IMG/VR virus record: IMGVR_UViG_3300047462_000030
Direction: 5' to 3' (one strand)
Origin: an uncultured virus (IMG/VR IMGVR_UViG_3300047462_000030)
Lineage: Duplodnaviria; Heunggongvirae; Uroviricota; Caudoviricetes
Length of the DNA: 24,378 nucleotides
Part shown: in pieces, positions 397 to 23,724 of the stretch
How the letters are laid out: the number at the start of each line of letters is the position of its first letter
Position numbering within the stretch: the stretch's first letter is position 1
Translations under genes and position numbers: made by a program
The notes under the pieces: model-generated
Told to the model about the DNA's origin: nothing
Databases searched by the model: none
The model's input: only the letters and a program-made list of their open reading frames with translations

Positions 397-724
397 ACTT
401 GCTATCCTTTGTTATGATGCCACCATTGGCAGACCTGATATACATTGTAAATGTCTTGTAACCCATATCAGCAAATGCCTCTTGCATTTGACTCATGATA
501 TAAGATGCTAGATCAAAGCTCGTAGTCTTAATGATAACGTGTGGAGCTTGCACATGATTCTTTGTCTCAAGCAATAACTCCCACTCACCACCAACAATCT
601 TAGATAACATATCATCCTTACCTTTCATTGGTTCATCAAGACCTAATTGATCTACAGTAAATAACATCTTATCTTTATACCATAGATATGCAATACACAA
701 AGCACTTACTACAATCATCCACAT
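383..724 (-). CDS. Hypothetical protein with N-terminal membrane anchor
   Basis: Start moved to ATG 724 (MWMIVVSALCIAYLWY), which follows an AAGGA RBS; 113 aa. Confidence 0.65.
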   Translation of the reverse strand: MWMIVVSALCIAYLWYKDKMLFTVDQLGLDEPMKGKDDMLSKIVGGEWELLLETKNHVQAPHVIIKTTSFDLASYIMSQMQEAFADMGYKTFTMYIRSANGGIITKDSKYGNM

Positions 725-3966: not shown

Positions 3967-4380
3967 TTAGTAGTCTGTAACACTACATCCTGTTACCGTG
4001 AAATTGCAAGATGAATTAATACCATTACTAGTATAATTCCCATTAGGAATAGCAGATAAGAAACCGTCATTGGCGGAGTAGACCGCATATAGATTACCTC
4101 CAATACAAAAGCCTATTTCACTGAAAGTATTAGGATATGATGTAGCATTAGAACAGAATTGTATTGGTTCAATAACTGTGCCAGCACTCCCATTAGATCC
4201 ATTAAGTAATAGAGATGATGTGCTACCACAAGTGATTAGTGAACCGCCATCAGGTGATGCACTTGATACACCTACACTAGATACAGTACAGCTTGTACCG
4301 TTTGTACCATCATGTCCATTAGTTCCATATTGTCCACAACCTGATAGTAATATTAACGCTATTATATACTTACGCATCAT
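3967..4380 (-). CDS. Lipoprotein with short collagen-like repeats and a Cys-rich C-terminal domain
   Basis: MMRKYIIALILLSG|C lipobox; GTNGHDGTNG and NGSNG G-X-Y triplets; six further Cys. Confidence 0.75.
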   Translation of the reverse strand: MMRKYIIALILLSGCGQYGTNGHDGTNGTSCTVSSVGVSSASPDGGSLITCGSTSSLLLNGSNGSAGTVIEPIQFCSNATSYPNTFSEIGFCIGGNLYAVYSANDGFLSAIPNGNYTSNGINSSCNFTVTGCSVTDY

Positions 4381-4481
4381 TTCACCATAGCTTTTATAAT
4401 TGTATCTGGAGATATGAATGCGTTGGATGCAATCCACACGCTAATGAATAAACTTAATGCAATAACAAATACAAGTTTCAT
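4377..4481 (-). CDS. Small membrane or secreted peptide (34 aa)
   Basis: MKLVFVIALSLFISVWIASNAF...; AAGGGA RBS; ATGA overlap with the lipoprotein gene. Confidence 0.45.
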   Translation of the reverse strand: MKLVFVIALSLFISVWIASNAFISPDTIIKAMVK

Positions 4482-4707
4482 ATTATATCCCTTCGATGTA
4501 AGTTAATGTTTCATCTACTAACTCATCTTGACTCATATCATCTATATACATGTTAACACACCTTTACCCATCCACAATTACACTTAGTACATATCCTATC
4601 AAAATACTCACTATCAATAGTATTCCTATCGACAAAGTAATTGGCATAGGCCTGTGAACCTTTATAAACATATCTATGGAATCCTAAAAAGCATTTCCAA
4701 TTCATAT

Positions 4708-4938
4708 TCAATCCCATGCAATTTCAATATACCTTGACTCATCATCTATGGTAACAACATAACACTTACCCTCAACCATAGCTTTGATAATCTTACCCTG
4801 AATACGTGTGCTATACTTAGACTCTATATAACTCCACTCACATCCAAAGTAACCATCCTCATAGCCTATAGTGAAATTCTTATAAGTATGTGAACCATCA
4901 TCAAACATTGCATTATCTAATACATTACACGCGCCCAT
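4708..4938 (-). CDS. Hypothetical protein
   Basis: 76 aa; GGAGGA RBS. Confidence 0.7.
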   Translation of the reverse strand: MGACNVLDNAMFDDGSHTYKNFTIGYEDGYFGCEWSYIESKYSTRIQGKIIKAMVEGKCYVVTIDDESRYIEIAWD

Positions 4939-5043
4939 AGAAAAGTCCTCCCCAATTCACACATACATAAAACACGCGCACTATTTTTCACACTGCATAC
5001 GATACACTTATGCCTTATACATTTGTGTATGTATATGAATTGA

Positions 5044-5229
5044 TTAGCAATCTCCAATCAACTCTAATCGTTCTAGTATTGCATTAGATATATGTTGTTC
5101 TATTTCTTTCTTATCCTCACGCAACACTCGGAGTAACTCTTGTTCTTCTGGAGTTAGTTCTCCACCTTGTTCTTGTATCTTATCTATAGCTTTACATACT
5201 TGATTCAACTTGTATTGACAGTTATGCAT
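5044..5229 (-). CDS. Hypothetical coiled-coil protein
   Basis: Start moved to MHNCQYK, which follows an AAGGAGG RBS; 61 aa. Confidence 0.7.
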   Translation of the reverse strand: MHNCQYKLNQVCKAIDKIQEQGGELTPEEQELLRVLREDKKEIEQHISNAILERLELIGDC

Positions 5230-5230
5230 A

Positions 5231-5407
5231 TCAACCTCCTTCATCCATACTTGTGATACCATCATCACACATCTCATCAGTACACTTGTGACAGTTATGC
5301 CATATACCTTCTGACTCTATATCGTCCTGAGCATCTTGTCTGGTATCATATGGAGCATCTATTAATATAGACTCTTTAACTTTACCTTTGATTATATTGT
5401 ATCTCAT
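5231..5407 (-). CDS. Hypothetical protein (58 aa, absent from the ORF track), directly downstream of hammerhead 2
   Basis: MRYNIIKGKVKESILIDAPY...CHKC...EGG; its RBS GAGGAGG lies inside the ribozyme core. Confidence 0.7.
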   Translation of the reverse strand: MRYNIIKGKVKESILIDAPYDTRQDAQDDIESEGIWHNCHKCTDEMCDDGITSMDEGG

Positions 5408-5487
5408 ATAATGGCCTCCTCAATACGTGCTATACACGTAGACATACCCATGAGCCTAGGGGAAGACCCATGGATATGTTTCGGCCT
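5407..5487 (-). ncRNA. Type II hammerhead ribozyme with variant core (UUGAGGA)
   Basis: Minus strand reads GGCC-GAAA-stem III (CAUAUCCAUGGGUCU/AGGCUCAUGGGUAUG)-UC|-stem I (UACGUG UAUAG CACGUA)-UUGAGGA-GGCC. Predicted cut after GUC, between 5441 and 5440. Confidence 0.8.
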
Positions 5488-5500
5488 AACAGCGTGGGGA

Positions 5501-5830
5501 TTACGCTGCCTCAGTATCAAATGCTTTGATCTCAGGGATCACAATATCATCGGCAACAACAACCTTGCTTGTCTTATCAACAGCAAGGATTGCTTTGTGA
5601 GCTTCAATGAATGTAGCAATGTCTTTACTAGCATTCAATAACTTAGCCCATTGTTTACCATAGAGTGTGACAGGGAAACGACCTAAGCCATATACAGATA
5701 CAGCTCCCTTAGCTGATACCTTAAAGCTTAGGCTAGGCTCTTTACGTTTGGGATTCTTAAGTTCTGCATTCTCTTGCTGAAGTCTTAAGAGTTCTGCTTT
5801 CATTGCTAATAGTTCTTGTTCGAAGTTCAT
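5501..5830 (-). CDS. Conserved-type hypothetical protein (coiled coil plus KVSxKGAVSVYGLGRFPVTLY domain), possibly nucleic-acid binding
   Basis: Start moved to MNFEQELL, which follows an AAGGAG RBS. I recall the motif from a widespread small bacterial/phage family of unknown function; not searched. Confidence 0.75.
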   Translation of the reverse strand: MNFEQELLAMKAELLRLQQENAELKNPKRKEPSLSFKVSAKGAVSVYGLGRFPVTLYGKQWAKLLNASKDIATFIEAHKAILAVDKTSKVVVADDIVIPEIKAFDTEAA

Positions 5831-6002
5831 GTGTATCTCCTTTGTAACGTATGCTATAGCATACATGGTTAATAATCATCTTAATAACATATACATAACT
5901 GTATGTATATGATGTAACATATTAATAACATTAACATAACTCATAACACACCCATTGCTTTAAACAATAGAACAGATATAAAGTAACCACACACTAGGTA
6001 CA

Positions 6003-6200
6003 TCATGCTACACGTTTCATATGTGTAGGGTATAACATATGCTCTATATTCTTTATCTCACTATCTAGGTATTCGATGTAGCCAATGTTAATACCATTGA
6101 CTCCACGTTCTTCATAGTGCATAGCTATCTTATACTTGATAGCAGTTAGATGAGACTTAAGTTCTTCTTCTGTGATGCTAACTCTTTTATACTTAATCAT
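6003..6200 (-). CDS. Hypothetical protein
   Basis: 65 aa; AAGGGG RBS. Confidence 0.7.
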   Translation of the reverse strand: MIKYKRVSITEEELKSHLTAIKYKIAMHYEERGVNGINIGYIEYLDSEIKNIEHMLYPTHMKRVA

Positions 6201-6219
6201 ATCTATCCCCTTGTTAAGA

Positions 6220-6351
6220 TTAAAGATAAGCTATTGTATACTCAAGCTTGCATTGCATTAGAACATTGACAAGCTTAAGTACATCGCTAAAGTATTCATA
6301 CTGCTCATGCTTAATAACACTACCATTGATATAAGTTACTTGATACTTCAT
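6220..6351 (-). CDS. Hypothetical protein (43 aa), first gene after hammerhead 1
   Basis: ATG at 6351 follows AAAGGAG. The longer ORF-track version would run through the ribozyme. Confidence 0.65.
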   Translation of the reverse strand: MKYQVTYINGSVIKHEQYEYFSDVLKLVNVLMQCKLEYTIAYL

Positions 6352-6359
6352 AACGTTCT

Positions 6360-6464
6360 CCTTTGTTAGACTCATCAGTACGCGCTTCACACGTAGACAA
6401 TCCAATAGGTTAGCTGATGTTCAACCGGCTTGCTATAGGATTGTTTCGTCTTTTAAACAAAAGG
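6360..6464 (-). ncRNA. Type II hammerhead ribozyme, canonical core
   Basis: Minus strand reads AGAC-GAAA-stem III (CAAUCC...GGAUUG)-UC|-stem I (UACGUG UGAAG CGCGUA)-CUGAUGA-GUCU. All conserved core nucleotides are present. Predicted cut between 6396 and 6395. Confidence 0.92.
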
Positions 6465-6885
6465 CTTGCTAAGTCTATCAAGTGTCTAGCTCATGCACTT
6501 AGGTACTACAGCTCTAACATTTGTCTTGATACTTTCGTCAAGTCCCTATGACAGCTCACATTCTAGTTACAGTCTATCGACCGCTTCAACTAGGGCTGTA
6601 AAGTATAGGACCACATGGTAATTAAGCACATGCTACGAAGGATTTATCCTACCGCCTATGACCTTTGTCTCGGGCATGGGTTACTAGCCTCATGTTATAT
6701 CCCGCTACTAGCGTCCAGCAATCGGCACCTGTCGAGAAGGCTCCTATACTTTGAACATGGCTTACTTGTTACAGGACTTACGTTCTAAGGCTTGTCTTAA
6801 GTAAGTCGACGTGTTAGCCTTGAACTACCTGCCTTAATTCTAGCAAGGCTTGTTGGTGCCTTTCTAGTCTAAGTTGCCGTTCGAA
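6465..6885 (-). ncRNA. Candidate large structured non-coding RNA, family not recognised
   Basis: No ORF of 60 aa or more; visibly GC-richer than its flanks; many nested helices (6600-6610/6742-6752, 6563-6568/6588-6593, 6775-6781/6801-6807, 6507-6512/6595-6600, 6501-6505/6826-6830, 6465-6471/6841-6847). Lies between a sigma-54 box and hammerhead 1. Confidence 0.6.
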
Positions 6886-6895
6886 AGATTTTCAT

Positions 6896-6912
6896 TGCAG
6901 GGGCGGTGCCAA
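6896..6912 (-). promoter_or_regulatory. Sigma-54 (RpoN) -24/-12 promoter
   Basis: TTGGCACCGCCCCTGCA, exact GG-N10-GC spacing; predicted start near 6885. Confidence 0.7.
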
Positions 6913-6968
6913 CTTTAAATTGCTGAATCTTTTCGGGCACTTACGTTTGCTGATCGCTCGTTCTTCTT

Positions 6969-6986
6969 TTGTAAGTACTTGAAATC
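6969..6986. promoter_or_regulatory. IHF-like site; 18-bp repeat of 7072-7089
   Basis: ttgTAAgtacTTGAaatc versus ttgTAAgtatTTGAaatc (one mismatch); near match to YAANNNNTTGATW. Confidence 0.5.
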
Positions 6987-7048
6987 GTTAATGAATTTTC
7001 TGAAGCGCTTGAAACTATTGGGGAATTTCAAATTGAACGTGCGTTAAC

Positions 7049-7129
7049 TGTAAAAACTTTTGACGGAAATCTTGTAAGTATTTGAAATCATTCAGTGTCG
7101 AACTTTTTTACATGTATAAACTTTTGACA
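7049..7129. promoter_or_regulatory. Three TGT-N11-AC(A/G) dyad sites, candidate enhancer for a sigma-54 activator
   Basis: TGTaaaaacttttgACG 7049-7065, TGTcgaacttttttACA 7096-7112, TGTataaacttttgACA 7113-7129. Confidence 0.55.
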
Positions 7130-7222
7130 CTCGGAAAATTTCCTATAATGAATTGCTCTCCCTCATCTAGCAGGTCTAAGTGATTAGCAATCGTTTTGCT
7201 TATCTATCGTTGTGGATTACAA

Positions 7223-7331
7223 GCAACTCTCATGCCAAACATTTTTCTACCTATCGCAATTCTCATGCCGGCATTCTTTTTGCATGGTCTTGTATTGTGG
7301 TATAGTATTTGCTAATGCAAGAGTAGGGCCT
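7223..7331. promoter_or_regulatory. Cluster of five sigma-54-like GG-N10-GC boxes on both strands
   Basis: Minus: TTGGCATGAGAGTTGC 7238-7223, CGGCATGAGAATTGC 7270-7256, AGGCCCTACTCTTGCA 7331-7316. Plus: CGGCATTCTTTTTGCA 7269-7284, TGGTATAGTATTTGCT 7298-7313. Confidence 0.65.
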
Positions 7332-7359
7332 GGTAGGGGGGTAGGGTAGTCTTGGGGGG
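7326..7359 (+). other. Putative G-quadruplex-forming sequence
   Basis: GGG-cctggta-GGGGGG-ta-GGG-tagtctt-GGGGGG fits G3+N1-7 four times. Confidence 0.55.
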
Positions 7360-7443
7360 CAATTGCAGTTGACATAGCTCACTGGAATTCTTTAGGAATA
7401 TTGAATATAGAAACATTACAAATCCAGCTAAAATTAGGTCATT

Positions 7444-7454
7444 TTAACAACTAT
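7444..7454 (+). promoter_or_regulatory. Phage-specific motif TTAACAACTAT (putative late promoter)
   Basis: Same 11-mer at 8097, 11709, 22223 and 23315, each at a gene boundary. Confidence 0.65.
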
Positions 7455-7531
7455 TATAGAAACGTATAGATTTACTAGGTTTATCTTCATTTTGACCTAG
7501 TTTTGGTTTAAATACGAGAAAAATGAACAGC

Positions 7532-7544
7532 TAAGTTATTGATT
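7532..7544. promoter_or_regulatory. IHF consensus site
   Basis: TAAGTTATTGATT is an exact match to YAANNNNTTGATW. Confidence 0.55.
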
Positions 7545-7603
7545 GTACTATTTAGAATGCAATCGAGAACTTAGTAATAACAATATGCTATTATAGAAAT
7601 TAT

Positions 7604-8089
7604 ATGAAATACAATTATAGAAACAAGTTAGAACATCTATTACAACCTGGTATTTATGGTATATTAAACAATAGAAATAAATCTATTTACATAGGTTATG
7701 GGGTTAATATGCTACAATCTGTATCTAGACAACTAGATATGATACAATCTAAAACTCATAGTCATTTTCCTCATACCACTAAAGTTAGTTCATTACAAGT
7801 GTTTATTATAGAAACTTGTCCTAATGATCTAGAATGCCTCAAGCTTTGTCAAACTACTTGGGCTGATACCTACCTAGCTAAAGGATATAAAGTCCTTAAT
7901 ATAGCCCGTCTATTGCGTTATAAAGTAAAAATTAAAGTAGATCAAGATTACAACATCCTAGTGTGTCTAGTTAGCTCTAATAAGAAATACAAGGTCATTA
8001 ATACCTTTAAACATATGCAAGATGCTATAGCTTATTCCAAACTTCTAGAACAAGAAATAACACAAGTATATGGTAAAAGGGAACAATAG
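7604..8089 (+). CDS. GIY-YIG-fold protein, probably catalytically degenerate
   Basis: PGIYGILNNRNKSIYIGY motif; the catalytic Arg and Glu positions appear substituted. Confidence 0.75.
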   Translation: MKYNYRNKLEHLLQPGIYGILNNRNKSIYIGYGVNMLQSVSRQLDMIQSKTHSHFPHTTKVSSLQVFIIETCPNDLECLKLCQTTWADTYLAKGYKVLNIARLLRYKVKIKVDQDYNILVCLVSSNKKYKVINTFKHMQDAIAYSKLLEQEITQVYGKREQ

Positions 8090-8096
8090 TGACCTT

Positions 8097-8107
8097 TTAA
8101 CAACTAT
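8097..8107 (+). promoter_or_regulatory. TTAACAACTAT motif (putative late promoter)
   Basis: Exact intergenic copy. Confidence 0.65.
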
Positions 8108-8229
8108 AATGGAAAGCGTGCTAGACAACGCTACCGCTCACTTCGCTTCGCACGTTCGCTCTAAGCAATAGCAAAGAGCAACAGCAGTAGCTAGAACGTA
8201 CACGCTGGACTCTGTCCAAAGGTTTTTTA

Positions 8230-8379
8230 ATGGCATATAAGTTTATATTCATAGGAGCAATTGTATTAAGCGTTTTGATAGCGATGTCGATACAGATATC
8301 TGTACACAAATCCTCCAAGCTCAAGAAGAAATCCAAGAAGCACAATTTGAAAGTGATAAAGGGAGGGAAGATCTTTTGA
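8230..8379 (+). CDS. Small membrane protein with a basic tail (49 aa, absent from the ORF track)
   Basis: MAYKFIFIGAIVLSVLIAMSI...KKKSKKHNLKVIKGGKIF; its stop overlaps the next TTG start. Confidence 0.6.
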   Translation: MAYKFIFIGAIVLSVLIAMSIQISVHKSSKLKKKSKKHNLKVIKGGKIF

Positions 8380-8564
8380 ATCTTACCTTTATCCTAAAGA
8401 AAGATAATACAACAAAGATTGTTAAAGACTTTGTATATAACTTTGCTCCCACTACCTATTATGATCATGGTGGGGTTTTAAGAATAGATGAATACAATTT
8501 TGTCATCCGTAAGGGTGATAAAGTCTATTATGAATTTGTTGCACCTAAGAAAAGACTTGACTAA
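8376..8564 (+). CDS. Hypothetical protein
   Basis: 62 aa; TTG start with GGAGG RBS. Confidence 0.6.
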   Translation: MNLTFILKKDNTTKIVKDFVYNFAPTTYYDHGGVLRIDEYNFVIRKGDKVYYEFVAPKKRLD

Positions 8565-10908: not shown

Positions 10909-11096
10909 ACGCAAGACATTGTAAAGACTGTAAATTATTAAAGAATCGTATCCAGGATGGAAAGTTCTCTAATGGTCGTGATAAACGATGGTTAGACGAA
11001 AATGGTAAGCTTTGGAATGGTAATAGATGCCCAGATTGTGTAGTACTTAAAGTACGAGAATCTATGAGGATTTCAAGGAGTAAAGTAACGTCCTGA
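10905..11096 (+). CDS. Zn-binding hypothetical protein
   Basis: CKDC...CPDC; 63 aa. Confidence 0.7.
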   Translation: MNARHCKDCKLLKNRIQDGKFSNGRDKRWLDENGKLWNGNRCPDCVVLKVRESMRISRSKVTS

Positions 11097-11534
11097 TGGT
11101 CCAGGTGCTCGTAAATCCACGTGTACCCAAGTTGTCGTCCCACGCTCCATTCTAATGCCAAGTTGCTCTAATAGCGGTTCTAATACGTTCTTAACATCAT
11201 CAATACTCATTGTATTGTTGCAGTCAAAATCACAAGCCAAATTCATAGCATGAACATCCATACCAGTTGGAGGTAGGATATTTTGTTCTAAATTGTATTG
11301 AGGACTTCTAAACATACAATGAACATTCATAGGACAATTAAGTGCAGATCTTACCGTCTCTAATGCATTGCATAAGGCAGTCAATTTAGTGTAGTCTGCG
11401 CCATCTGCAACTGTTGCGAGCCTATTCCAATTGTGAAGCATTAGAGCATCGCTAACCGTAAAATGTTTAGTTATTTGATGGTCGGGATTTGTCCAATCAA
11501 TTTGATCTGCAAATGCTTGTTCTTGGTCATCCAT
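11073..11534 (-). CDS. Endolysin-like peptidase M15 (Zn D-Ala-D-Ala peptidase fold)
   Basis: HFT..D, FRS..YN, H....A.D and WVHVD motifs; GGAG RBS. Confidence 0.85.
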   Translation of the reverse strand: MDDQEQAFADQIDWTNPDHQITKHFTVSDALMLHNWNRLATVADGADYTKLTALCNALETVRSALNCPMNVHCMFRSPQYNLEQNILPPTGMDVHAMNLACDFDCNNTMSIDDVKNVLEPLLEQLGIRMERGTTTWVHVDLRAPGPSGRYFTP

Positions 11535-12169: not shown

Positions 12170-12583
12170 ATGTCTGATTTGAATATTAAAGAAGCTAAAG
12201 AATATAAAAAACTTGAGACCTTCTCTAATGCGCAAACTAATACAATCATTGAGCTATCTCGTAAGTTAAAGACTGCTCAAGATGAGATCACACATCTTAA
12301 AAAGCTATTAGAAGGTTCTGTTCCTCTTATTCAATCTCAATCTGATAAGATTATATCTAATGCTGGTGATCAAGAATATATTTGTCGTACTGAAATCAAT
12401 AAGTTACGCGGTATATCTAATGAAAGAGAACTTACACTAGAAGAAACCAAGAAACTTGATATTTTTTCTAAAATATTAAAAGACTTAGCCACTTCACCAA
12501 AAGGTTTAGATCAACCTGCTAAAAAAGCAACTGATGAAGAACTACTTGCCGCAATTGAATCAGAATCGAATACTAAACAATGA
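12170..12583 (+). CDS. Putative terminase small subunit
   Basis: 137 aa, helical, ATGA-coupled directly upstream of the large terminase; called by position only. Confidence 0.5.
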   Translation: MSDLNIKEAKEYKKLETFSNAQTNTIIELSRKLKTAQDEITHLKKLLEGSVPLIQSQSDKIISNAGDQEYICRTEINKLRGISNERELTLEETKKLDIFSKILKDLATSPKGLDQPAKKATDEELLAAIESESNTKQ

Positions 12584-14025
12584 ATTTAACTAAGGCAGAA
12601 GCTATAGCAGAATTCTGGAATAGAGGTAACTTAAAATATAAGTGTCATCCTATTCAAAAGGAAATGTACAACATTTTCTATGAAGCTCCTAAGCATTCTA
12701 CCCTTGTATGGCTACTTGCTCGTCAATCTGGTAAAAGTTATCTTTTAGGTATTCTTGCATTAGAACAAGCATTTAGACATGCTAATTCCATTATTAAAAT
12801 GGTAACAGATACTAAGCTACATCTTAAGTCAATCTTTGAAAAAATCTTTGAAGACCTTCTTGCAGATTGCCCAGAAAAGCTTAAACCAGATTTCAAAGAA
12901 AAAACATATACCTACTATTTCACTAATGGATCTCAAATCCAATTAGCCGGTACTGATAATAAGCACTATGAAAAACTTCGAGGACAAAAGGCTCATTTAG
13001 TTTTAATTGATGAAGCAGGTTTTTGTAACGATTTTTCTGATGTTGTTGATAGCGTTCTCTTTCCTACTACCACTCATACTGGTGGTAAGATCGTAATGGC
13101 CTCAACTCCTCCAGAACAATTAGACCATGATTTCTTTAAGTATATAGAAGTTGCTGAGAATGAAACATTTCTAACAAAGAAAACAATTCACGATAACCCG
13201 CTTCTTGATAAACCTCAAATTGAACAAATCATAAAGAAGATGGGTGGGATTAACTCAGAACGCTTTAGAAGAGAGTATCTTTGTGAAGTTGTTAAAGATC
13301 CTAATATGTCTGTTATTCCTGAGTTTGATGATGACCTTATCAAACAAATTGTAAAGGAATGGCCAACTCCTCCCCATTATGATTGTTATGAAGCTATGGA
13401 TCTTGGTGGAGTAGATTTAACTGTTTGCCTATTTGGTTATTATGATTTTAGAGCAGATAAGATTATAATTCAAGATGAACTTATTATGGACTTTTCTGAG
13501 CAAAATAATACAATAGCAAAGCTTACAGAAAATATTCAAAACAAAGAAAAAGAACTTTGGACAAGTCCTATGACGTTAGAAGTTAAGAAACCTTATCTTC
13601 GCGTTAGTGATATTGATTATATGGTAACTGGCGAAATTCTAAAATATAGCAATTACCAAATGAACTTTCAAGCTACAAAAAAAGATGATAACAATTCAGC
13701 TATCAATGACTTACGTCAGCTATTAGCTTCTAAAAAGATTATAATCCATCCTCGTTGTGTTAATTTAATAAGACATTTAAAAAACGTAAGATGGGCCAGT
13801 AAAACAAATAAACTTAAGTTCGCAAGAAGTCCAGATAACGGACATTACGATGCAGTGGACGCATTAAAGTATTTCGTTAGGTCTGTCATATTTACCAGGA
13901 ACCCATATCCTTCACATTATGATTTTAAGATGAAAGATCTATTTGTGGTTGATCCTGTTAGGTTTGAAAATAAACAAATTGATGTTTACCGTCAAATTTT
14001 TAATGTAAAAAGGAAAAGAACATAA
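12580..14025 (+). CDS. terL: Terminase large subunit
   Basis: Walker A ARQSGKS, LRG, Walker B LVLIDEAG, motif III ASTP, F.REY.CE, nuclease acidic motifs MDLG and HYDAVDALKY. Confidence 0.95.
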   Translation: MNLTKAEAIAEFWNRGNLKYKCHPIQKEMYNIFYEAPKHSTLVWLLARQSGKSYLLGILALEQAFRHANSIIKMVTDTKLHLKSIFEKIFEDLLADCPEKLKPDFKEKTYTYYFTNGSQIQLAGTDNKHYEKLRGQKAHLVLIDEAGFCNDFSDVVDSVLFPTTTHTGGKIVMASTPPEQLDHDFFKYIEVAENETFLTKKTIHDNPLLDKPQIEQIIKKMGGINSERFRREYLCEVVKDPNMSVIPEFDDDLIKQIVKEWPTPPHYDCYEAMDLGGVDLTVCLFGYYDFRADKIIIQDELIMDFSEQNNTIAKLTENIQNKEKELWTSPMTLEVKKPYLRVSDIDYMVTGEILKYSNYQMNFQATKKDDNNSAINDLRQLLASKKIIIHPRCVNLIRHLKNVRWASKTNKLKFARSPDNGHYDAVDALKYFVRSVIFTRNPYPSHYDFKMKDLFVVDPVRFENKQIDVYRQIFNVKRKRT

Positions 14026-16157
14026 TGGATTATATCAACGGTGGTGGTAATGACATTTATTTCGCAGCTAGAGAGCCAGAAAAGCTTGCTAGCGACGCTT
14101 TAAATAAAGCCCAAAGCTTCTTTAATCTATTACGAGCCAACTCCTACTTAGAAAAACTTCAACGTATGTGGAGAGCTTATCATGGAGCTTATGAGAATGA
14201 CTTAGGATTTGGTCATAGAGTAAATTTTTCTGGTGAACAAGGCGAATTAGTACAACTTCCTGTCAATCACTTTAGAAACCTTGCCCGACATATCTTGGTT
14301 ATGATTACTTCTAACCGTCCTATAATGGATGCTAGAGCTATCAATACCGATTATAAATCACTTGCTCAAGCTAACCTTGCTAACGGTATTTTAGATTATT
14401 ATATGCGAGAAAAAGGACTAGAAGACGTTCTAACTCGCGCTGTTGAATATGCAATTGTCCTTGGATCAGGTTTTATTAAACTTGCCTGGAACTCAATGGG
14501 TGGTAATCTCTATGATGCTGACCCAGAAACTGGTGAATTTACTTACGAAGGTGAGCTAGAATTCACAAATCTTTCTCCATTTGACGTTGTAGTTGATGGA
14601 ACAAAAGAAACTTGGGATAATGATTGGATTTTGACAAGAACATTTCAAAATAGATTCAATCTTATGGCTAAATATCCCGAATTAGCCGATAAAATCAAAG
14701 GAATTCCTCCTAAAAATCAATCTGCTGTATATCGTTTAGCTGTTTGGTCTAATGATGACACTGATGATATCCCTGTTTATGAATTTTACCATAAACAAAC
14801 TGAAGCACTTCCTGAAGGTCGATACCTTTTATTTCTAGATGCTGATATTATTCTATTAGATGCCAAGATGCCTTATAGAATGATCCCAATTTTCCGCATT
14901 GTTGCTGGTGAAATCCTTGGAACTCCTTATGGTTACTCGGATATGTTTGATATTTTTCCGATTCAAGAGTCAATTAACTCTCTTTATAGTACAATTATGA
15001 CCAACCAAAACGCATTTGGTGTTCAAAACTTGTATGTTCCTCGTGGTGCTGACATTGCTGTTAATCAACTTGAAGGTGCAATGAACATTATTGAGGGTAA
15101 TATGAAGCCAGAACCTCTCAATTTGACTCAAACACCTGCAGAAGTATTCAAATTTTTAGAAATGTTGGTGCAAGCATCAGAAACTTTATCTGGTGTTAAC
15201 TCAGTTGCTCGTGGTAATCCTGAAGCTTCTCTTAAATCTGGTACAGCTTTGGCCCTTGTTCAATCAATGGCTTTACAGTTTATCTCAGGTTTACAACAAT
15301 CTTACGTTAAACTTATTGAATCTATTGGAACTGCCATTATTGGTATTCTAAAAGACTTCTCAATGACTCCTAAGCTTATTACATTGGTTGGTAAAAACAA
15401 TAAACCATTGTTAAAAGAATTTACTGGAGACCAAGTATCTGAAATTAATAGAGTTGTTGTAGATATGGGTAATGCTTTATCAAGAACAATTGCTGGTCGT
15501 GTTCAAATGGCCGAACAATTGCTTCAAATGAAGCTACTTACAAACCCTCAACAATATTTCCAAGTGCTAAATACTGGTCGATTAGATTCAATGTATGAAG
15601 CCGAAATGGATGATCTACTTCTTATTAAACGAGAAAATGAAAAACTCTCTGAAGGTGTTAATCCTCCTGTATCTCCTCTAGATAAACACAGTATGCACAT
15701 TCAAGAGCACAGAGCAGTTCTTGATGATCCTGATTTGAGAAGTAATGATCAACTCAAAACTGTTGTAATGGCTCATATTCAAAGTCATTTAGATGATCTT
15801 CGACGTGTTGACCCAGCTCTTTTAAATTTAATTGGGGAAACTCCTCTTCCTCCTGCTAATCCTGCTCCACAAGGAAGCCCTCCCGGTGGAACTCCTCCTA
15901 ATCCTCCTGGACCCCCTGGTGGACCTCCTAGACCTGGTATGCCAGCTCCTGGACAAGGACAATCAGGTGCCGCTGGTGCAGAAGCTCAAGGCAACATGTT
16001 ACAAAATCCCCAACTAGGACCTATCAATCCTGGTGAAACATTATCAAATGGTGCTAGCCCAATGGCTATGCCAAATATTCCTAAGCCGCCTGGTGTTTTC
16101 AAAAATCTTCCAGTAATGGCAAATCAAATGGCTCCGCCTATTGCGGGAAGGAAATAA
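14025..16157 (+). CDS. Portal protein
   Basis: 710 aa directly after terL; GSGFIK, SPFDVVVD, SGV....G....SGTA portal-like motifs; Pro/Gly-rich C-terminal tail. Confidence 0.85.
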   Translation: MDYINGGGNDIYFAAREPEKLASDALNKAQSFFNLLRANSYLEKLQRMWRAYHGAYENDLGFGHRVNFSGEQGELVQLPVNHFRNLARHILVMITSNRPIMDARAINTDYKSLAQANLANGILDYYMREKGLEDVLTRAVEYAIVLGSGFIKLAWNSMGGNLYDADPETGEFTYEGELEFTNLSPFDVVVDGTKETWDNDWILTRTFQNRFNLMAKYPELADKIKGIPPKNQSAVYRLAVWSNDDTDDIPVYEFYHKQTEALPEGRYLLFLDADIILLDAKMPYRMIPIFRIVAGEILGTPYGYSDMFDIFPIQESINSLYSTIMTNQNAFGVQNLYVPRGADIAVNQLEGAMNIIEGNMKPEPLNLTQTPAEVFKFLEMLVQASETLSGVNSVARGNPEASLKSGTALALVQSMALQFISGLQQSYVKLIESIGTAIIGILKDFSMTPKLITLVGKNNKPLLKEFTGDQVSEINRVVVDMGNALSRTIAGRVQMAEQLLQMKLLTNPQQYFQVLNTGRLDSMYEAEMDDLLLIKRENEKLSEGVNPPVSPLDKHSMHIQEHRAVLDDPDLRSNDQLKTVVMAHIQSHLDDLRRVDPALLNLIGETPLPPANPAPQGSPPGGTPPNPPGPPGGPPRPGMPAPGQGQSGAAGAEAQGNMLQNPQLGPINPGETLSNGASPMAMPNIPKPPGVFKNLPVMANQMAPPIAGRK

Positions 16158-22306: not shown

Positions 22307-23260
22307 ATGGCTAATAATAGCACGGCACCCGCTGCAGCCGCACCAGCAGCAACCTCAGAAGCTCCCAAATCAACTGGAATGACCCCTGCAGAAGCCGCAA
22401 TGGTAGGTCAACCAGGCCAAAAAGCACAGGCAACTGAAGCTAAAAAACAAATTATAGCTAAAACAGCCCCTGCAGCACCCCAAAAAAATGTTAAAAAGTT
22501 CAAACTTAAGGTCGATGGTCAAGAATATGACGAAGAAATCGATCTAAATGATGAAGATTCTCTTCGAGAACAGCTCCAAATGGCTAAAGTATCCCGTAAA
22601 AGGATGCAAGAGTTCTCTGAATTACAGAAGCAAGTAGTTGGATTTGTTGAAGCTTTAAGAAAAAACCCAAGAAAAGCTCTTTCTGATCCAAATATTGGTG
22701 TAGATGTTAAGGAATTAGCAGCTAGAATCATTGAAGAAGAGATTGCAGAGTCTCGTAAATCCCCTGAACAGATCGAACGTGAGCGTTTACAACAAGAAAT
22801 TCAGGCAATGAAGGAAGAACGAGATCGAGAAAAGAACGAATTACAAGCTCGTGAGATGGAACGTCTTAAAGAACAAGAGTTTGAACGTATTGATATGCAA
22901 ATTGATCAAGCTCTTCAGAAGACAGATCTTCCAAAAGAGCCCTATGTAGTTAAAAAAATTGCAGAATACATGCTTTTAGGCTTTCAAGCTGGTAAAGATG
23001 TAACTCCTGAAGATGTTTTGCCTATCGTTAGAGAAGAAATCCTGGCTGATATCAGACATTTAGCTGAAGTTATGCCAGAAGACGCTCTTCAAGAGATCTT
23101 TGGTGATGTAATTAAAAAAGTTCGTAAGTCAAATGTTGCTAAAGCTAAACAAAAAGTGGCAGTTGGCTCTAATAAAACGATTGACGTTGCTAAAAAGCCT
23201 GATGCTACTCCAAAAAGCACAGATAAAAAGAAAACTTTTAAAGAATTTTTTGGCGTCTAA
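22307..23260 (+). CDS. Putative capsid scaffolding protein
   Basis: A/P-rich N-terminus, KLKVDGQE motif, long E/K/R coiled coil; upstream of the capsid genes; AGGAG RBS. Confidence 0.7.
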   Translation: MANNSTAPAAAAPAATSEAPKSTGMTPAEAAMVGQPGQKAQATEAKKQIIAKTAPAAPQKNVKKFKLKVDGQEYDEEIDLNDEDSLREQLQMAKVSRKRMQEFSELQKQVVGFVEALRKNPRKALSDPNIGVDVKELAARIIEEEIAESRKSPEQIERERLQQEIQAMKEERDREKNELQAREMERLKEQEFERIDMQIDQALQKTDLPKEPYVVKKIAEYMLLGFQAGKDVTPEDVLPIVREEILADIRHLAEVMPEDALQEIFGDVIKKVRKSNVAKAKQKVAVGSNKTIDVAKKPDATPKSTDKKKTFKEFFGV

Positions 23261-23294
23261 GTATTTGAATTTATTAAGTAATCACTTATGGTTG

Positions 23295-23311
23295 TTGGCA
23301 TGCTTATTGCA
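23295..23311 (+). promoter_or_regulatory. Sigma-54-like box
   Basis: TTGGCATGCTTATTGCA, GG-N10-GC, intergenic. Confidence 0.6.
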
Positions 23312-23361: not shown

Positions 23362-23724
23362 ATGTCTGTTGGATATAAGCCAAAAAACGAATTAACGCAA
23401 AATCAAGCTCTTGAAGTTCAAGAACTTGTTGTTTGTGGTACTGACTATGCTCTTTATTCAGTATCTGGCAGCGTTATTACCATTTATGTTCGTGAACCTG
23501 TAGCTGTAATTGAAAACGGTTTTATTAAAATCGATTCTTCAAATACTATGCACGATTATTCGAAAGCTAATATGGCTATCGTTGATACAAAAGGTGCTCT
23601 TTCAGGTTATAATGAATTTGGTGTTATGGTTAGTGACCAAGGTGCAATTGCACTTACTGGTGTTAGCGCTCTTAACCCCAATGATTGTTTAGTAGTTAAG
23701 TATAAAGTGGCCGACCACTTATAA
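23362..23724 (+). CDS. Putative capsid decoration/accessory protein, paralog A
   Basis: GAGGAG RBS; end-to-end similarity to 23871-24293. Confidence 0.7.
   Translation: MSVGYKPKNELTQNQALEVQELVVCGTDYALYSVSGSVITIYVREPVAVIENGFIKIDSSNTMHDYSKANMAIVDTKGALSGYNEFGVMVSDQGAIALTGVSALNPNDCLVVKYKVADHL

Follow-up and report, generated by a model that had tools for sequence, protein, structure and literature searches.

Hammerhead ribozymes that divide phage transcripts have been described before, and the closest published parallels come from the survey of Perreault et al. (2011; PMC3088659). In that paper, several hammerheads in prophages flank individual genes or small gene clusters and are proposed to cut long phage transcripts into gene-length mRNAs, the hammerhead of halovirus HF1/HF2 has its cut site no more than 3 nucleotides (nt) from the mapped 5' end of the major transcript, which begins with the first open reading frame (ORF), and pairing of loop I with the 3' tail in a pseudoknot is important for the speed of cleavage. 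The same text records U3-A8 as a natural, compensated covariation in hammerhead cores and, together with a later paper, indicates that phage core variants can retain low or metal-dependent activity. As for the type of promoter considered below, one of the mapped transcription starts of Pseudomonas phage YuA has a sigma-54-like promoter region according to PMC10914365, in agreement with an earlier promoter-trap assay. Here we describe a locus in a 24,378-nt stretch of DNA from an uncultured virus (IMG/VR record IMGVR_UViG_3300047462_000030; the whole stretch is called the window), in which two type II hammerheads, HH1 and HH2, punctuate a leftward train of small genes.

The window comes from an uncultured tailed phage of peat or moss, and moss and peat metagenome runs hold DNA near-identical to it. 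Its G+C content is about 35% (0.355), strong Shine-Dalgarno sequences stand ahead of its genes, and a train of small minus-strand genes, functions unassigned, runs from about 6350 down to 154. At the head of this train the arrangement of elements points with good probability to a leftward, probably early, operon that consists of a sigma-54-type promoter, a leader of about 490 nt, HH1, three genes, HH2 and the remaining genes. Its parts are as follows.

6896-6911, minus strand: sigma-54-type -24/-12 box, TGGCAC-N5-CTGCA, an exact match to the consensus TGGCAC-N5-YTGCW (short pattern at 6910-6897)
6396-6885, minus strand: untranslated leader of about 490 nt, the predicted 5' cleavage product, ORF-free, 44% G+C
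6368-6451, minus strand: HH1, type II, canonical core (CUGAUGA, GAAA, GUC), predicted cut 6396/6395, stem III unusually long with a 32-nt insertion
6220-6351, minus strand: gene 1 after HH1, 43 amino acids (aa) counted from its ATG at 6351, Shine-Dalgarno sequence present
6003-6200, minus strand: gene 2, 65 aa
5501-5830, minus strand: gene 3, 109 aa, product common among phages, function unassigned
5413-5486, minus strand: HH2, type II, variant core UUGAGGA (U3, G7), predicted cut 5441/5440
5231-5407, minus strand: first gene after HH2, 58 aa, which opens the remaining small-gene train

The initial annotation, a reading of the letters and a list of ORFs, had already proposed this order (a promoter-like box, a leader free of ORFs, the first hammerhead, three genes, the second hammerhead and the rest of the train), and the order stands. 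Its three small genes between the ribozymes (6351-6220, 6200-6003 and 5830-5501) are where it put them, and the predicted product sizes, about 490 nt for the leader and 955 nt for the three-gene piece, agree with the coordinates.

Both hammerheads are true type II motifs at these positions. Along the minus strand each is built of a stem II strand, GAAA, the stem III hairpin, the GUC cleavage triplet (of the NUH kind), the stem I hairpin, the core strand and the second stem II strand, which is the type II permutation. Stems II, III and I have 4, 7 and 7 pairs in HH1 and 4, 15 and 7 in HH2; stems I and III are capped by loops and stem II is open, and the A15.1-U16.1 and G10.1-C11.1 pairs are present in both. 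A descriptor scan of both strands of the window returned exactly these two, with C17 at 6396 and 5441, the very cuts (6396/6395 and 5441/5440) that had been predicted beforehand. The matches are not due to chance: a looser descriptor finds a mean of 0.023 matches per dinucleotide-shuffled window, with any match at all in 7 of 300 shuffles. They were also the only window matches at E<=10 of R1, a covariance model made from an alignment (A1) of 33 IMG/VR phage type II hammerheads, none of them from the window; with filters off, HH1 scored 41.6 bits (E 3e-8) and HH2 40.7 bits (E 5e-8). Unconstrained minimum-energy folding gave a three-way junction for each, with a z-score of -3.9 for HH2 (0 of 200 shuffles as good) and -1.9 for HH1 (10 of 200). 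In these folds the stem II of HH1 can be extended by five further pairs across a 4-nt bulge, and nt 1-17 of the downstream products still form the stem I hairpin. On visual inspection, HH2 has 5 nt, beginning one base beyond stem II, with which its loop I could pair.

The two ribozymes belong to a sizeable family. At least 127 stretches in IMG/VR combine a GGCC stem II with a canonical core, often several to a contig. Among the matches listed, 117 of 124 distinct instances could be parsed, with GUC as the triplet in 104, GUA in 11 and GUU in 2; stem I has 7 pairs in 88 of the 117 and a 3-nt loop in 86, a shape shared with HH1 and HH2, and the sequences of stems I and III vary freely while pairing is kept. 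Both window hammerheads also have the G-U-NNN-G-C top of stem I that is seen in the IMG/VR family. The stem I and core pattern led to an unrelated phage contig, L006, with three compact canonical type II hammerheads, one per intergenic gap. Another case involves gene 3, whose homologues (44-67% identity) occur at 5 IMG/VR loci and at 80 of 114 metagenome loci: on L035, an unrelated metagenome contig, a compact type II hammerhead (501-548, plus strand) lies about 60 nt upstream of the homologue, the sole hammerhead of that kind among the 85 loci. These four (three on L006, one on L035) are the compact hammerheads among 19 raw descriptor matches in 93 loci; the other 15, weak, with long loops, within coding sequence and repeats of two sequences, were set aside.

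A further property of the family concerns its 3' tails. In IMG/VR loci L100-L179, the sequence AUCAG occurs within the 20 nt after stem II of 24 of 83 distinct hammerheads, mostly from base 1 or 2, and within the 20 nt upstream of 1 of the 83. AUCAG complements CUGAU of the ribozyme core, and the tail may thus offer a competing pairing by which the core is disabled. Neither hammerhead of the window carries it.

The variant core of HH2, and its double role as the next gene's ribosome-binding site, had been missed in the initial annotation. HH1 has the canonical core, and HH2 is better filed as a core variant of the type II family because it has U in place of C at position 3, opposite G8. All remaining core positions are retained. 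A scan of IMG/VR for the UUGAGGA-GGCC strand found 6 stretches. Judged by eye, two of these, in the unrelated G+C-rich phages L096 and L098, are well-formed U3 hammerheads whose stems I and III differ and yet pair; in L094 and L095, which are identical to each other, the strand looks decayed; and the remaining 2 are not hammerhead-shaped. The version of the strand with C3 and G7 occurs in 17 stretches. Counting L096 and L098 together with the 17 C3 stretches, 19 members have a G7 core, and in 15 of them a start codon follows stem II by 0-5 nt, so that GAGGAGG of the core and stem II strand serves as the Shine-Dalgarno sequence of the next gene. Indeed, HH2 has 5 nt between stem II and the start codon of the gene at 5407, and its core and stem II strand contains that gene's Shine-Dalgarno sequence.

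No credible ORF was found on either strand between 6452 and 7603, which leaves a gene-free control region of about 1.15 kb. In addition to the box at 6896-6911, the following elements were recognised in this region and near the other end of the window.

7223-7236, minus strand: sigma-54-type box, upstream copy 2, 33 base pairs (bp) from copy 1
7256-7269, minus strand: sigma-54-type box, upstream copy 1, a repeat and a pattern match
7270-7283, plus strand: sigma-54-type box GGCAT-N5-TTGC, back to back with the box at 7256-7269
23297-23310, plus strand: near-consensus sigma-54-type box in the short gap ahead of the gene at 23362
7094-7131, no strand: imperfect palindrome of 38 bp, with a 21-nt repeat unit at 7108-7128 and another copy of the unit at 7044-7064; candidate activator or operator sites
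7072-7092, no strand: dyad-symmetric repeat with TAAGTAYTTGAA, copy 2
6969-6989, no strand: dyad-symmetric repeat with TAAGTAYTTGAA, copy 1, which includes the 'IHF-like site' of the initial annotation
23258-23269: third TAAGTAYTTGAA copy, just upstream of the box at 23297

The pattern GGCAY-N5-YTGC has five exact matches in the window where 0.44 would be expected; none of 100 shuffles reached five, and all five are intergenic. The 12-nt dyad core TAAGTAYTTGAA has three exact copies (6972, 7075 and 23258), each near a sigma-54-type box; a search that tolerates one mismatch raises the count to 4, where 0.93 would be expected. Box and dyad thus recur together at 23258-23310 much as in the early region, which suggests that the same regulator and promoter type may serve both ends of the genome. 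The dyad repeats sit about 85-245 bp upstream of a transcription start that the usual -24/-12 spacing, and it only, would put near 6885; one RNA-library contig reaches 6873, which is compatible with such a start, although contig ends do not mark transcript ends. A relative about 97% identical to the window was met in run X5. One of its contigs diverges just below position 7075, and the loose end there keeps the -24 and -12 elements with three of the five spacer bases changed, as would be expected of a functional box (a single observation). Scans for sigma-70-type promoters and for terminators in 5000-8000 did not rise above shuffles, and the sigma-70-type result accordingly neither offers an alternative start nor excludes one. 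On balance we lean towards the box at 6911-6896 being the sigma-54-type promoter of the operon, as its sequence would have it. The box had been called in the initial annotation and proved an exact consensus match, and the upstream dyads reported there reappear as the palindrome at 7094-7131 and the second 21-nt unit at 7044-7064. The proposed site for integration host factor (IHF) at 6972-6984 did not survive: it has one mismatch, 77 such matches occur against 63.8 expected, and the sequence is in fact one copy of the TAAGTAYTTGAA dyad.

Between this box and HH1 lies the leader, which is free of ORFs under translation table 11, with TAG read as glutamine (TAG=Q) and under table 4. Recoding was considered as a cause of the gene-free stretch and dismissed, as no ORF opens in 6452-6890 with TAG=Q or table 4. 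The leader has a G+C content of 0.44 against 0.355 for the window, and it contains a short repeated motif.

6853-6845, 6795-6787, 6469-6461 and 6433-6425, minus strand: the four RCAAGCCKK repeats of the leader

These are all the matches to RCAAGCCKK in the window, and all lie on the transcribed strand; 0.81 would be expected over both strands of the whole window. A separate oddity is the frequency of UAG, found 22 times in 6396-6890 (minus strand) against about 9 expected from the window average, with GCUAG found 4 times against 0.36. The excess is not explained by recoding, since no ORF opens with TAG=Q.

The initial annotation described some 420 nt of nested helices here, a description that finds weak support. 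The leader as a whole folds with a z-score of -2.17 (3 of 100 shuffles as good; plus strand -1.54), and 150-nt windows give -2.8 at 6900-6751 and -3.7 at 6600-6451 (plus strand -1.2 and -0.3). Only these two ends stand out, the z-score of the middle 350 nt being near 0, and coding parts of the operon reach values like those of the leader ends. No homologue of the leader was found in INPHARED, in Rfam (E<=10), in IMG/VR (18-mer scan, 0 matches) or among 480 loci, and it is absent from all 85 loci with a homologue of gene 3. A pair-of-repeats pattern matched more than 100 stretches in each of IMG/VR and genome contigs, none of them leader-like by blastn; the pattern is too loose, and these matches are put down to chance. 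Nine natural variants, from near-identical sequences, fall in the leader: five at unpaired positions, three that disrupt pairs of the minimum-energy fold and one that preserves its pair. They are too few to judge covariation, and they do not support it. There is a hint in run X20, where 6788 and 6830 change jointly from U-A to C-G within a possible 4-bp helix. Homologues with covarying pairs, the mark of a conserved large structured RNA, were thus not found for the leader in these searches, and the case for it as a conserved structured RNA is weak.

Contigs from RNA libraries also match the leader. In RNA libraries from two studies the sole contigs at least 95% identical within 4000-8500 fall in it (6601-6873 and 6626-6811), and a third RNA library has a contig over 5478-5688. 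Library matches below 90% identity at 5143-5177, 5634-5671 and 8313-8347 are short and were disregarded, and the uncovered parts in RNA runs X14, X19 and X20, which make up most of 4000-8500, were given no weight.

Taken together, these elements suggest how the operon might work. Transcription would most likely begin at the sigma-54-type promoter inside the gene-free region, a placement that draws on sequence statistics, and HH1 would cut the leader away 45 nt ahead of the first start codon. HH2, with its U3 core, would cut after the third gene, possibly more slowly, and the pieces would be the leader of about 490 nt, the 955-nt three-gene RNA and a downstream mRNA. Hammerhead chemistry leaves a 2',3'-cyclic phosphate on the upstream product and a 5'-OH on the downstream one. 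With loops closing stems I and III and stem II left open, the stem III hairpin should form the end of each upstream piece, and the stem I hairpin should start at the very first base of each downstream piece. The two halves would be held together by stem II alone, which has 4 pairs, or up to 9 for HH1. We infer that the pieces separate with their ends protected, so that segments of one message could have differing lifetimes and become separately stabilised units. At HH2 there may be an added layer: the ribosome-binding site would stay locked within core and stem II as long as the fold is closed and, the catalytic strand being the Shine-Dalgarno sequence, folding or cutting may gate translation of the next gene.

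Several points weigh against this picture of the operon. Cleavage, RNA ends and promoter use are all predicted from sequence, and the RNA evidence consists of assembled contigs that give neither strand nor ends and could include carried-over DNA. The boxes at 7236-7223 and 7269-7256 could start longer transcripts. The order of sigma-54 box, gene-free leader and hammerhead has no second case among 67 other hammerhead-bearing loci; two candidates were discarded there, L166, where a good sigma-54 box is separated from its hammerhead by a gene, and L149, where the box falls within a gene. A search of the whole window with Rfam at gathering score, the check proposed in the initial annotation, gave 0 matches, and at E<=10 on 5100-7300 it gave no hammerhead and only two chance rows resembling microRNAs or small RNAs. 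Rfam Hammerhead_II (RF02276) aligns with HH1 over its full length at 24.4 bits, below the threshold of 37 and only when a 111-nt piece is searched, and it does not match HH2 at all. The same model gives one of the L006 hammerheads 25.9 bits, leaves the other two unlisted at E<=1 and likewise leaves the L035 hammerhead unlisted, from which we take the Rfam threshold to be a poor judge of this phage subfamily. Inspection of HH1 revealed no obvious partner in its 3' tail for a loop I pseudoknot. Finally, the U3-G8 combination of HH2 differs from U3-A8, the compensated natural variant in print, and HH2 may therefore be slow or dead.

Whether HH2 would cleave at a useful rate is, on its sequence, close to an even question. 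It could be a catalytically dead relic, its fold kept merely as a set of hairpins and as the next gene's ribosome-binding site, with the operon cut once, at HH1, and we take this possibility seriously without favouring it. Such a relic would account for U3 opposite G8, where the recurring published variant is the compensated U3-A8, and it would fit both the decayed form of the same strand in L094 and L095 and the fact that in IMG/VR, for a G7 core and this same stem II, C3 (17 stretches) greatly outnumbers U3 (6, of which 2 are well formed). It fits less well with three intact helices, one of them a stem III of 15 pairs, with an intact GAAA, A15.1-U16.1 pair and GUC, and with an R1 score of 40.7 bits. 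The U3 strand moreover recurs in two unrelated phages with stems that differ but pair, and low yet real activity is documented for natural core variants of phages (PMC3088659 and the later paper). If HH2 does cut, the 955-nt piece between the cuts would have a 5'-OH at one end and a 2',3'-cyclic phosphate at the other, and a host ligase of the RtcB type could then close it into a circular RNA of three genes. Spliced or circular products were raised as a possibility for clustered phage hammerheads in PMC3088659, whose authors sought such products and detected none. The metagenome and RNA runs examined held no back-joined contig, contigs being a poor test of this, and we regard circularisation as very improbable.

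The promoter is open to a comparable challenge. The GGCAY-N5-YTGC boxes might not be RpoN promoters at all, being instead sites for a phage regulator or promoters for a phage-specific factor, in which case the operon would start elsewhere. The back-to-back boxes make a 28-bp palindrome (7256-7283) with a further copy 33 bp away, which resembles an operator array, and no sigma-54 activator gene lies in the window; the chance-level sigma-70-type scan, listed in the same connection, supplies no alternative and no exclusion. That said, the boxes match the whole -24/-12 consensus at exact spacing, down to the T that flanks it and the GC of the -12 element, and one box stands alone, sensibly spaced, in the short interval that precedes the gene at 23362. 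The X5 relative retains the two elements and not the spacer, and YuA provides a precedent for sigma-54 use by a phage (PMC10914365). We therefore hold the operator reading to be rather unlikely and keep to a sigma-54-type promoter as the working view.

For the leader, the alternative is that it is an end in itself, a non-coding RNA that functions independently, perhaps by using its four RCAAGCCKK repeats as a decoy or sponge, with HH1 as the maturation device that gives it a hairpin-capped 2',3'-cyclic phosphate end. The confinement of all four window matches to the transcribed strand of the leader, the raised G+C (0.44 against 0.355), the strand-specific structure signals at both ends and the two RNA libraries that match well within 4000-8500 only here are what one would look for in such an RNA, and the joint change at 6788 and 6830 in X20 would agree with it, in a helix of 4 bp only. 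Against these stand the want of any homologue in INPHARED, Rfam, the IMG/VR 18-mer scan and the 480 loci, a middle 350 nt with z near 0, and nine variants of which five lie outside pairs, three break a pair and just one preserves it. A free-standing function of this kind seems unlikely to us. The fuller version, in which a phage non-coding RNA is made from the sigma-54-type promoter, released by HH1, accumulates in infected cells and uses the four repeats to decoy some factor of the host or the phage, appears more doubtful again. RtcR-like activators sense cyclic-phosphate RNA ends and are linked to sigma-54 transcription. A bolder form of the same idea, offered as a speculative candidate, would have such an end-sensing activator respond to the cyclic-phosphate ends that the ribozymes generate and thereby close a feedback loop on sigma-54 transcription. 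The reading that we prefer remains that of a leader severed from the first gene of a punctuated operon.

The rest of the window is that of a tailed phage, with the following recognisable genes.

12580-14025, plus strand: large terminase gene
14025-16157, plus strand: portal gene
11073-11534, minus strand: endolysin-like gene

A scan of the window for tRNA genes found none, and blastn of 5100-7300 in distant mode against 50,697 phage records (INPHARED) gave no match. Relatives of the large terminase in IMG/VR comprise one at 59% on a 4.8-kb contig that ends short of the region and six marginal matches; among genome contigs of GTDB there are none. The 109-aa protein of gene 3 fell into unnamed clusters only in an atlas look-up. 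Between genes 2 and 3, the 172-nt gap at 5831-6002 (minus strand) is AT-rich and dense in short repeats resembling ATGTTA and TATGT, and an internal promoter could lie within it. Hammerheads aside, the transcribed strand shows its strongest local folding signal in the gene at 5044-5277, with a z-score of -4.5 at 5001-5150 (minus strand).

On the far side of the control region, 7425-7605 (plus strand), just 5' of the gene at 7604-8089 (plus strand), contains two long inverted repeats, a 16-pair helix around about 50 nt and a 17-pair hairpin. These give a z-score of -3.1 with 0 of 200 shuffles as good, and a 150-nt window there reaches -5.3. The gene itself is weakly GIY-YIG-like (Pfam 21.8 bits, below the cut-off of 22.6). 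Since 7416-7635 and 7677-8095 are skipped or replaced in the relative from run X5, at about 97% identity, the region looks like a mobile cassette with a homing endonuclease.

How, then, does the locus compare with described systems? Like the clustered prophage hammerheads of PMC3088659, HH1 and HH2 are type II ribozymes that sit in gaps between small genes running in train on one strand, with more than one to the operon and a proposed role in cutting the transcript. They differ in number, with only two copies here, in the 32-nt stem III insertion, non-GGCC stem II and lack of an obvious pseudoknot in HH1, and in the U3-G8 of HH2, for which the published pair is U3-A8. HH1 is positioned, as is the HF1/HF2 hammerhead, so that it would remove a leader from the first gene of a polycistronic transcript; the latter, as that paper has it, belongs to an archaeal virus and is a core variant with an insertion whose activity depends on salt or Mg, whereas HH1 has a canonical core and a leader of about 490 nt. 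Rfam Hammerhead_II (RF02276, clan CL00010) shares the core and the permutation with stem II open, and HH1 aligns with it in full; it differs in that HH1 falls short of its threshold (24.4 against 37) and HH2 goes undetected. YuA and the phage of the window are both tailed phages with a sigma-54-like promoter region, mapped in YuA and here deduced from five sequence matches only; nothing reported for YuA connects it with ribozymes. Our literature search on phage sigma-54 promoters returned nothing specific beyond YuA.

GOLLD and ROOL are large phage-associated families of non-coding RNA in Rfam, several hundred nt long, gene-free and enriched in G+C. The leader resembles them in size only, as it matches no Rfam family at E<=10 and offers neither covariation nor a homologue. 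The initial annotation did not recognise the combination of elements as a described system, a view that has to be given up: punctuated phage operons and leaders severed by hammerheads are both reported in PMC3088659, and the layout is for that reason a further example of a published one and not a new system. What is of interest here is the leader RNA, the set of sigma-54-type promoters and the U3-G8 core. Sigma-54-type promoters at an early and a late unit, as apparently used here, are uncommon for phages and, if confirmed, would be informative on host and gene timing. The U3-G8 core, usually regarded as crippled, recurs among well-formed phage hammerheads, and a catalytic strand that doubles as the next gene's ribosome-binding site, as in 15 of 19 related cases, ties RNA cutting or folding to translation. 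Set beside the known systems, the locus is a clean, statistically secure ribozyme-punctuated operon in a peat or moss phage that has no close relatives, and it indicates that a hammerhead can serve as the device that parts a long leader from the first gene.

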